Source of the DNA: Escherichia coli | Lineage (GTDB): Bacteria > Pseudomonadota > Gammaproteobacteria > Enterobacterales > Enterobacteriaceae | DNA length: 64,000 bases | NCBI RefSeq assembly: GCF_965641715.1 | Contig: NZ_OZ282453.1 | Strand: one strand, 5' to 3' | Shown: positions 55,610-57,165 of the stretch, in pieces | How positions within the stretch are numbered: the stretch's first letter is position 1 | How the letters are laid out: every line of letters starts with the position of its first letter | The notes under the pieces: generated by a model | What the model was told of the DNA's origin: nothing | What the model saw: the letters and a program-made list of their open reading frames with translations, nothing else | Databases searched by the model: none | Program-made: the position numbers and the translations under genes

Positions 55610-55825
55610 ATGAAATCCATGGACAAAATTTCAACAGGTATTGCCTACGGCACCTCCGCAGGCAGTGTTGGCTACTGGTTTTTACAGCTGCTCGATAAAG
55701 TCACGCCCTCACAGTGGGCAGCAATAGGTGTGCTGGGTAGCCTGGTATTTGGCCTGCTGACGTACCTGACAAATCTTTATTTCAAGATTAAAGAAGACAG
55801 GCGTAAGGCTGCGAGAGGAGAGTAA
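55610..55825 (+). CDS. essQ: class II holin (EssD/EssQ-like) with dual-start motif
   Basis: Six-frame ORF 55553..55825 trimmed to [29 protein letters not shown]... (71 aa) after SD ggagg; two TM segments; Met-Lys-x-Met dual start. Confidence 0.85.
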
Positions 55826-55829
55826 TCCA

Positions 55830-56141
55830 ATGACTCAAGACTATGAACTGGTTGTGAAAGGAGTCCGTAATTTTGAGAATAAAGTTACGGTAACTGTAGC
55901 CTTACAGGACAAAGAACGCTTTGACGGTGAAATTTTTGGCCTGGATGTCGCCATGGACCGTGTTGAAGGAGCTGCGCTGGAGTTTTATGAGGCAGCAGCC
56001 AGAATGAGCGTCCGGCAAGTCTTCCTGGAAGTAGCAGAAAAATTGTCAGAAAAAGTTGAGTCTTATCTGCAGCATCAGTACTCCTTTAAGATTGAAAATC
56101 CTGCCAATAAGCACGAGCGTCCTCATCATAAATATCTATGA
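55830..56141 (+). CDS. ydfR: DUF1327 prophage protein YdfR-like
   Basis: 103-aa ORF between holin and endolysin, the position and length of ydfR in Qin. Confidence 0.65.
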   Translation: MTQDYELVVKGVRNFENKVTVTVALQDKERFDGEIFGLDVAMDRVEGAALEFYEAAARMSVRQVFLEVAEKLSEKVESYLQHQYSFKIENPANKHERPHHKYL

Positions 56142-56671
56142 ACACAAAAATCAGATACGGCCTGTCGGCTGCCGTTCTGGCGCTGATTGGTGCTGGCGCA
56201 TCTGCTCCTCAGATACTTGACCAGTTTCTGGACGAAAAAGAAGGTAACCACACAATGGCATACCGCGATGGTTCTGGCATATGGACCATCTGTCGGGGTG
56301 CCACAGTGGTGGATGGAAAAAACGTTTTTCCCAATATGAAACTGTCGAAGGAAAAATGCGACCAGGTCAACGCCATTGAGCGTGATAAGGCGCTGGCATG
56401 GGTGGAGCGCAATATAAAAGTTCCACTGACCGAGCCACAGAAAGCCGGTATCGCGTCATTCTGTCCCTATAACATTGGCCCTGGTAAGTGTTTTCCGTCG
56501 ACGTTTTATAAGCGGCTTAATGCCGGTGATCGTAAAGGCGCATGCGAGGCGATTCGCTGGTGGATAAAGGACGGTGGACGTGATTGCCGCATTCGTTCAA
56601 ATAATTGTTACGGTCAGGTTATTCGTCGTGACCAGGAGAGTGCATTAACCTGCTGGGGGATAGAACAGTGA
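56138..56671 (+). CDS. rrrQ: phage endolysin (lysozyme, GH24, SAR-type N-terminus)
   Basis: 177-aa ORF overlapping the upstream stop; N-terminal weakly hydrophobic Gly/Ala-rich segment (SAR-like); T4-lysozyme-like catalytic region (E...D...T within [24 protein letters not shown]). Confidence 0.9.
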
Positions 56672-57165
56672 ATCAGATATTCACGGTGATTTTGCTCGTG
56701 TTGGTAGGATTTGTCGTAGGTAATGTCTGGAGCGACAGAGGATGGCAAAAAAAATGGGCGGAGCGTGATGCTGCCGAATTATCTCAAGAGGTAAATGTCC
56801 AATTTGCTGCTCGAATAATTGAACAGGGGCGAAGTATATCCCGTGATGAGGCTGTTAAAGATGCACAACAGAAAGCCGCTGAAATTTCTGCCAGGGCTGC
56901 TGATCTGTCTGATAGTGTTAACCAGCTGCGTGCCGAAGCAACAAAATATGCCATACGCCTTGACGCAGCGCAGCATACCGCAAATCTTGCCGCTGCCGTC
57001 AGAGGCAAAACAACCAAAGCCGCCGAAGGAATGCTCACCAACATGCTCGGAGATATTGCAGCAGAAGCTCAGCTTTATGCTGAAATTGCTGACAAACGCT
57101 ACATCGCAGGAGTGACTTGTCAACGGATTTATGAATCTTTAAGAGATAAAAAATATCAGATGTAG
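56668..57165 (+). CDS. rzpQ: i-spanin Rz
   Basis: 165-aa ORF with N-terminal TM anchor and coiled-coil periplasmic region, overlapping the endolysin stop (ATGA). Confidence 0.85.
56861..57115 (+). CDS. rzoQ: o-spanin Rz1, embedded in +1 frame within Rz
   Basis: Internal Met of the embedded ORF 56819..57115 gives [23 protein letters not shown]... with lipobox LTSC and Pro-rich C-terminus; exact start uncertain (56846 or 56861). Confidence 0.65.

Follow-up and report, generated by a model that had tools for sequence, protein, structure and literature searches.

A predicted five-gene lysis cassette of Qin type, with a pinholin, a SAR lysozyme, embedded spanins and ydfR, in an Escherichia coli prophage

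The window analysed here is a 64,000-nucleotide (nt) stretch of Escherichia coli DNA, and all positions given below are coordinates within it. Between positions 55610 and 57165, the window carries a compact run of open reading frames (ORFs) on the same strand, in which direct reading of the ORF listing reveals zero frameshifts or premature stops. Five genes are found in this interval: S, ydfR, R, Rz and Rz1, the last embedded in Rz. The corresponding features are the following (aa, amino acids; SAR, signal-anchor-release; i-spanin and o-spanin, inner- and outer-membrane spanin).

55598..55607, + strand: tandem Shine-Dalgarno-like motifs GGAGGTGAGG before S, by direct reading
55610..55825, + strand: S, a P21-type class II holin (pinholin) of 71 aa (Pfam PF04971, E = 8.9e-36)
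55619..55825, + strand, same frame as S: 68-aa product from Met4, the putative pinholin effector form, from an in-frame ATG at codon 4
55830..56141, + strand: ydfR, 103 aa, DUF1327, between S and R (Pfam PF07041, E = 1.1e-51)
56138..56671, + strand: R, a predicted SAR lysozyme of 177 aa (Pfam PF00959, E = 6.2e-24)
56159-56209, + strand: SAR segment of R, residues ~8-24, from composition and hydropathy
56668..57165, + strand: Rz-type i-spanin (RzpQ family, DUF2514), 165 aa, GTG start (Pfam PF10721, E = 3.6e-38)
56861..57115, + strand: Rz1-type o-spanin (RzoQ family), 84 aa, an embedded ORF (PHROG 11621 spanin, E = 2.6e-8)

The genes are tightly packed. S and ydfR are separated by 4 nt, the ydfR stop and the R start overlap in ATGA, and the R stop and the Rz start overlap in GTGA. 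The original prediction had described an intact, regulated cassette of four genes, with a dual-start holin, a SAR-type endolysin and an embedded spanin pair. All of these features lie exactly where it had placed them, but the count has to be raised to five because ydfR had been overlooked. Intactness was borne out: re-translation uncovered no lesion, and the five ORFs are full length when compared with K-12 Qin, 933W and DLP12, none being truncated relative to its phage homologues. A 90-aa GTG-started ORF at 55553 and antisense ORFs inside Rz were set aside as by-products of mechanical ORF listing.

The cassette is of an already known type, that of Qin. In K-12, the Qin genes essQ-ydfR-rrrQ-rzpQ/rzoQ (b1556-b1553, b4689) show the same five-gene content and order, the same 4-nt gap and the same overlaps, and are likewise followed by cspI. 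Identities of the window proteins to their Qin counterparts are 90% for S (EssQ), 99% for R (RrrQ), 90% for Rz (RzpQ) and 95% for Rz1 (RzoQ). A 1771-bp (base pair) region is 99.8% identical to phage mEp460_ev081 (LR597641) and to many E. coli chromosomes and prophages, and 94-98% identical, across 94% of its length, to phages HannyBb, Tritos and PhiR42_1. These four phages have the same gene content, with only point differences. At least 80% of the 1771-bp query is covered in 2095 of the 5426 complete E. coli genomes, and in a 15-billion-protein collection the exact YdfR, R and Rz proteins are each found on at least 1000 contigs. Comparison with NCBIfam added nothing further on the cassette proteins. 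Overall, the comparisons support a refined identity for the locus, in which a pinholin is combined with an R21-type SAR lysozyme and with embedded RzpQ/RzoQ-family spanins, with ydfR inserted. Since this arrangement duplicates one catalogued in K-12 Qin and in many sequenced phages, it is of little importance beyond annotation, and the lysis paradigm to which its parts belong is the best studied one.

S scores 122.1 bits against the Pfam P21 holin S profile (PF04971), for a cut-off of 26. Its N-terminus, M1-K2-S3-M4, is a dual-start motif that also opens K-12 EssD and EssQ. The holins of phage 21 and DLP12 belong to the same Pfam family and have an identical MKSMDK dual start, S being 93% identical to EssD of K-12. 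In contrast, 933W S, 82% identical to the window protein, starts with MYQM and has no lysine between the starts. In the window, GGAGG is located 7 nt 5' of the first ATG of S, and GAGG 11 nt 5' of the ATG at codon 4. In phage 21, the 68-residue product S21 68 is a pinholin, in which the first helix exits the membrane while the second helices build heptameric pores of ~2 nm (PMC9636201). These pores depolarise the membrane and cannot release a cytoplasmic endolysin (PMC9636201). The 71-aa product of S21, with an extra lysine, is the antiholin (PMC9636201), and the 68/71 holin/antiholin pair is also described in bioRxiv 10.1101/2021.04.20.440580.

The window S fits this pair, so the dual start that had been claimed for it is well founded, use of both starts being a prediction; the holin label is correct too, although pinholin is the more precise term. 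The 71-aa protein from Met1, which bears Lys2, is the predicted antiholin-type product. Of the two predicted helices, helix 1 (residues 9-28) is weakly hydrophobic, with 50% Gly/Ala/Ser/Thr, and helix 2 (residues 36-58) is strongly hydrophobic, with a hydropathy maximum of 2.02. In addition, residues D2, K3, I4, V43 and K56 (S68 numbering, from Met4) are those named for S21 68 (bioRxiv 10.1101/2021.04.20.440580, PMC9239132). At codon 20 (position 55668), T replaces C and changes Ala20 to Val20 in the first, releasable helix. The common allele in phage relatives has alanine at this residue. In the 15-billion-protein collection, the exact Val20 protein occurs on 3 contigs, versus at least 1000 for the Ala20 allele. 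The substitution might shift lysis timing.

An mRNA structure controlling the two S starts was considered and rejected. Positions 55596-55604 (GCGGAGGUG), in the Shine-Dalgarno region, form a perfect 9-bp complement with positions 55651-55659 (CACCUCCGC), in S codons 15-17. The pairing is probably due to chance, because the z-score of the fold is only -1.1 and none of Qin, DLP12, 933W and Tritos has the helix. A short hairpin located upstream, over the Shine-Dalgarno region of S, is weakly conserved and unconvincing.

R carries the catalytic motif E35-x8-D44-x5-T50 (E-x8-D-x5-T). Residues 8-24 follow the basic residues K4 and R6, and 65% of them are Gly, Ala, Ser or Thr. Their mean Kyte-Doolittle hydropathy is 1.6-1.7, versus 2.7 for the Rz anchor, and this N-terminal small-residue anchor is kept across genera. 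R and 933W R share 89% identity, and their N-termini and SAR segments are nearly the same. The lysozymes of phage 21 and DLP12 are likewise of R21 type, with a SAR N-terminus and the E-x8-D-x5-T motif. With phmmer, R was aligned to R21 (PDB 3HDE, residues 9-174) and to DLP12 RrrD (4ZPU) from residue 9, and the alignment therefore takes in the SAR segment. Identity to RrrD is 38% in a four-sequence alignment and 35% in a 16-sequence alignment, and as compared to RrrD, the window enzyme shows an inserted loop and four additional conserved cysteines.

The AlphaFold2 model of R, built from the 16-sequence alignment, has a predicted local distance difference test score (pLDDT) of 87.5. In this model, residues 11-35 are helical and packed in the fold, with pLDDT values above 90. 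Foldseek matches of the model include R21, DLP12, P22 and T4 lysozymes. The model resembles full-length R21 and DLP12 lysozymes (3HDE and 4ZPU; template modelling (TM) scores of 0.72-0.73 over 169-183 columns, with 0.72 over 169-172 columns for R21) more than the truncated R21 devoid of its SAR segment (3HDF; TM score of 0.53 over 143 columns). Hence, the weak Gly/Ala/Ser-rich anchor, the R21 alignment including the SAR segment and the likeness to 933W R all speak for the SAR-type N-terminus that had been proposed. They support the view that R is a SAR endolysin of the R21 type, which would be exported by the Sec system, left uncleaved and freed upon loss of the proton-motive force. The eight cysteines of the R subfamily, conserved across enterobacterial genera and of which four are not found in R21, fit an exported, periplasmic enzyme. 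A SAR mechanism of the P1 Lyz type, by disulfide isomerisation, was rejected for R because residues 1-51, and thus the SAR segment, contain no cysteine, the first one being C52.

Alternatively, R could have an ordinary cleavable Sec signal peptide and be secreted as a soluble, active enzyme, in which case lysis would be independent of holin-triggered release. Residues 1-21 do follow an n-h-c layout, with K4 and R6, then LSAAVLALI, then A19-G20-A21|S22, and the AGASAP/AGAPAS motif is conserved across genera. This reading is weakened, however, because the SAR segment of R21 and RrrD has a comparable A-I-A|S, yet these proteins were crystallised full length with the segment folded in (3HDE, 4ZPU). 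The model also places residues 11-35 of R within the fold at high confidence. Besides, 933W R is one of three SAR endolysins that were tested experimentally; alone, it rounds up only a small fraction of the cells, whereas significantly more spheres are obtained with the Mu releasin gp25, which stimulates release (PMC9239132). Finally, R is paired with a pinholin, a type of holin unable to release a cytoplasmic enzyme (PMC9636201). We therefore regard cleavage of R as very unlikely and retain the SAR assignment.

Rz matches PHROG 312, 'Rz-like spanin', with E = 4.3e-58. It has an N-terminal anchor (residues 4-20, hydropathy 2.72) and a single periplasmic cysteine, C151. The whole of Rz1 is contained in Rz, where it is read in the +1 frame and takes up the fraction 0.39-0.90 of the gene, near the range of most embedded spanins (PMC6139136). 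Its best start is the ATG at 56861, with GAGG 9 nt upstream. The Rz1 N-terminus consists of basic residues and a hydrophobic stretch, followed by the lipobox LTSC (residues 20-23), with Val at +2. The mature protein would have 62 aa, including 9 Pro, Cys58 and Cys62. Published criteria for spanin pairs are that the o-spanin lipobox conforms to [LVI][ASTVI][GAS]C and that one or more periplasmic cysteines are available for intermolecular disulfides (PMC6139136). The Rz1 lipobox, found by motif reading as had been anticipated, fits this consensus and has no Asp at +2, as for sorting to the outer membrane; C151 of Rz and C58 and C62 of Rz1 provide the cysteines. When the codon order of Rz was shuffled, an embedded lipoprotein-like ORF arose in only 17 of 5000 cases (0.34%). 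This control and the close match to RzoQ argue that the embedded, out-of-frame Rz1 is real. The annotation of the closest genomes by the standard NCBI pipeline (PGAP) omits the embedded gene, so the earlier call of Rz1 is a correct addition.

Embedded spanins are also found in phage 21 and DLP12. However, their spanins (PF03245) and those of the window (DUF2514) belong to unrelated sequence families, and neither Rz nor Rz1 matched the lambda-type Pfam families PF03245 or PF06085. In forced alignments with the lambda, 21 and 933W spanins, identity is 23-26% for Rz and 22-29% for Rz1. In 933W, moreover, an ant gene separates R from lambda-type Rz/Rz1. The names Rz and Rz1 thus hold for the spanin architecture and not for the lambda sequence family: judged by sequence, the pair is an architectural analogue of lambda Rz/Rz1 rather than a family member. 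The putative spanin role of the pair rests on architecture and position. No match for RzpQ/RzoQ was found in the available part of the SpaninDB supplements of PMC6139136.

Three features upstream of the cassette bear on how it may be transcribed.

52169..52990, + strand: ORF of 273 aa for a Q-type late antiterminator, the presumed regulator of the late transcript reaching the lysis genes
53071-53090: terminator-like hairpin just 3' of Q, from a consensus scan
55484..55501, + strand: terminator-like GC hairpin and T run, 108 nt 5' of S, after two TolA-like genes, from a consensus scan

In an E. coli prophage that is 99.7% identical, the gene at the same position as Q is annotated as 'antitermination protein' (WP_000762885.1). 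The hairpins after Q and before S are consistent with Q-dependent read-through, and the one at 55484-55501 would keep transcription of the morons out of the lysis genes unless it is passed by a Q-modified polymerase.

By analogy with phage 21, 933W and lambda, lysis could proceed as follows. Late transcription, antiterminated by Q, would pass the upstream terminators. S would then be made from its two starts, and the 68-aa pinholin and the 71-aa antiholin bearing Lys2 would gather in the inner membrane, while ydfR would be translated between S and R, and R by termination-reinitiation. R would be exported by Sec and kept tethered and inactive by its weakly hydrophobic N-terminal SAR helix. At the programmed time, helix 1 of the pinholin would exit the bilayer and helices 2 would form small pores, collapsing the proton-motive force. 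The SAR helix of R would consequently leave the membrane and refold into the enzyme body as in R21, so that the lysozyme becomes active all over the envelope. Finally, a complex of Rz in the inner membrane and Rz1, an outer-membrane lipoprotein, would disrupt the outer membrane.

Altogether, we estimate with a probability of roughly 0.88 that the interval holds the lysis cassette from the late operon of a Qin-like lambdoid E. coli prophage, which would work as in phage 21, 933W and lambda. That the system is regulated, as the original prediction had it, and functional, we infer from homology. Several points weigh against this interpretation. The N-terminus of R also resembles a Sec signal peptide, in which A-G-A|S would be the site of cleavage, and the agreement of its AlphaFold2 model with 3HDE may partly reflect training on that structure. 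S has a rare substitution, A20V, in its releasable helix. Homology between the RzpQ/RzoQ-type spanins and the Rz/Rz1 of lambda, 21 and 933W is undetectable (hhalign probability of 1%), and a literature search on rzpQ, rzoQ and DUF2514 returned no experimental or functional paper. Lastly, in K-12 the same cassette, located in the cryptic prophage Qin, is not expressed (PMC13232886), which means that an intact reading frame is no proof of use.

This last point leads to the possibility that the cassette, like its counterpart in K-12 Qin, is a silent, intact-looking remnant left by a defective prophage and makes no contribution to lysis in the strain. The K-12 Qin counterparts have almost no RNA-seq reads in standard growth (PMC13232886), and the prophage carries cargo of the Qin/Rac type (dicB, ydfD, hokD and rem). 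The window, moreover, stops inside the head genes and shows the prophage only up to there. On the other hand, all five cassette ORFs are lesion-free, and the sequenced phages mEp460_ev081, HannyBb, Tritos and PhiR42_1 bear the same cassette. The matching annotated prophage has genes for excisionase, cI/Cro-like regulators, Q, terminase and portal; the prophage in the window itself retains terminase and portal genes, whereas K-12 Qin is a relic without them in such an arrangement. A silent relic thus appears unlikely. It would in any case concern expression in the host and not what the genes encode, and the identification of the interval as a lysis cassette is kept.

The fifth gene, ydfR, scores 173.5 bits against PF07041, for a cut-off of 25. 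Its product is computed to be soluble and acidic, with an isoelectric point of 5.55 and without any hydrophobic stretch. The Shine-Dalgarno sequence of ydfR, AGGAG, lies 9 nt upstream, within the 3' end of S. In 933W, where R directly follows S, the same site serves R; in the window, ydfR stands there instead. No Shine-Dalgarno sequence was found upstream of the R ATG in the window. Since R lacks its own site and its start overlaps the ydfR stop, R is probably translated by reinitiation after termination of ydfR.

DUF1327 is a tiny family, with 257 proteins in a 5.8-billion set. A profile search for remote relatives among 1.84 billion representatives returned 73 proteins only and no link to a known domain. 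The AlphaFold2 model of YdfR, built from a 17-sequence alignment, has a pLDDT of 48.9 and is too poor for a fold search, and no relative was found in the PDB by sequence. Homologues of ydfR are located directly 3' of the holin gene in Tritos, HannyBb and K-12 Qin, and in the same slot in Stx1a phages (~46% identity) and, as a 287-aa variant, in L007. In a 2026 study, YdfR was reported to bind RNase E at its catalytic N-terminal half and to co-purify with RNA, overproduction of YdfR having little effect on the transcriptome (PMC13232886). The same paper cites a screen that linked ydfR to envelope integrity.

Two views of ydfR can be opposed. The gene could be an unrelated passenger (a moron) of the cassette, with no part in lysis. 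It is present in only about 100 of the ~438 phage records with this holin type, and the lysis cassettes of phage 21, DLP12 and 933W do without it. Its GC content, 43.6%, is lower than that of S (48.1%) and R (50.4%), and RNase E, with which YdfR reportedly interacts, is no component of the envelope (PMC13232886). In addition, one distant DUF1327 member was found in a tail-gene region. This relative (profile E = 9e-8), at positions 3001-3285 of the metagenomic contig SRR16693353_14 (L010), lies outside any lysis cassette, between a tail-I-like gene and a J-like tail-tip gene, indicating that the domain is not strictly tied to lysis genes. Conversely, the slot between holin and lysozyme is kept in homologues down to ~46% identity and also for the 287-aa variant. 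The ribosome-binding site used by R in 933W has become that of ydfR, to which translation of R appears coupled. The genetic screen cited in PMC13232886 also flagged the gene for envelope integrity.

We give the passenger view an even chance. The opposite view is that YdfR is a real fifth component of pinholin/SAR-endolysin cassettes that tunes lysis timing. Given the slot between S and R, the coupling to R, the retention of this slot by diverged homologues and the binding to RNase E and RNA, YdfR could determine how much R is present or how stable the late lysis transcript is. We put this view forward as a tentative one, and on balance consider it improbable; if true, lysis timing would be tuned through either route. 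RzpQ/RzoQ spanins and YdfR are very widespread in E. coli, and no experimental record of them in lysis was found. For studies on the timing of lysis or on the induction of prophages, those of Shiga-toxin strains included, they are cheap targets.

The 99.7%-identical annotated prophage gives the wider layout. Its 5' part comprises excisionase, dicB/ydfD, cI/Cro-like regulators, hokD, rem, ydfU, rusA and Q. After Q come two tRNA genes, two TolA-like genes, the lysis genes, cspI-ynfQ-ynfN-gnsB, terminase and portal. In the window, the two tRNA genes are at 53134-53209 and 53310-53386 (+ strand), just 3' of Q. The first has a CAT anticodon and is called Met by ARAGORN but annotated as tRNA-Ile in matching genomes. 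The second is tRNA-Arg(TCT), and the pair is placed in a way reminiscent of ileZ-argN-argO in Shiga-toxin phages.

Between the Q/tRNA region and the lysis genes, two ORFs (54384-54812 and 54963-55358, + strand) encode paralogous small lipoproteins, with lipoboxes IIGC and VAGC and bodies made of a TolA C-terminal domain (Pfam PF06519, E = 2.4e-23 and 1.3e-14). Both belong to PHROG 5772, of unknown function. K-12 Qin has cspB/cspF/ynfU in place of these genes 5' of S. A promoter-like site at 54325-54354 and the terminator-like hairpin at 55484-55501 surround the pair in a moron-like layout. A literature search on the pair returned nothing specific. As a speculation, such proteins could act as periplasmic TolA-domain decoys that interfere with Tol-dependent phages or colicins.

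Directly 3' of the spanin genes, cspI (57526-57741, + strand) encodes a cold-shock protein (Pfam CSD, E = 1.7e-31). It is followed, up to ~58600, by homologues of ynfQ, ynfN and gnsB, as in K-12 Qin. According to the matching annotated prophage, the region ~42860-43240 (- strand), in the early-left operon, contains ydfD ('lysis protein YdfD') and dicB, a cell-division inhibitor, which make up a second, unrelated lysis/toxicity locus of the same prophage. Finally, a 449-aa ORF at 47673-49022 (- strand), located between the replication/immunity region and hokD and annotated as a hypothetical protein in matching genomes, could be prophage cargo.

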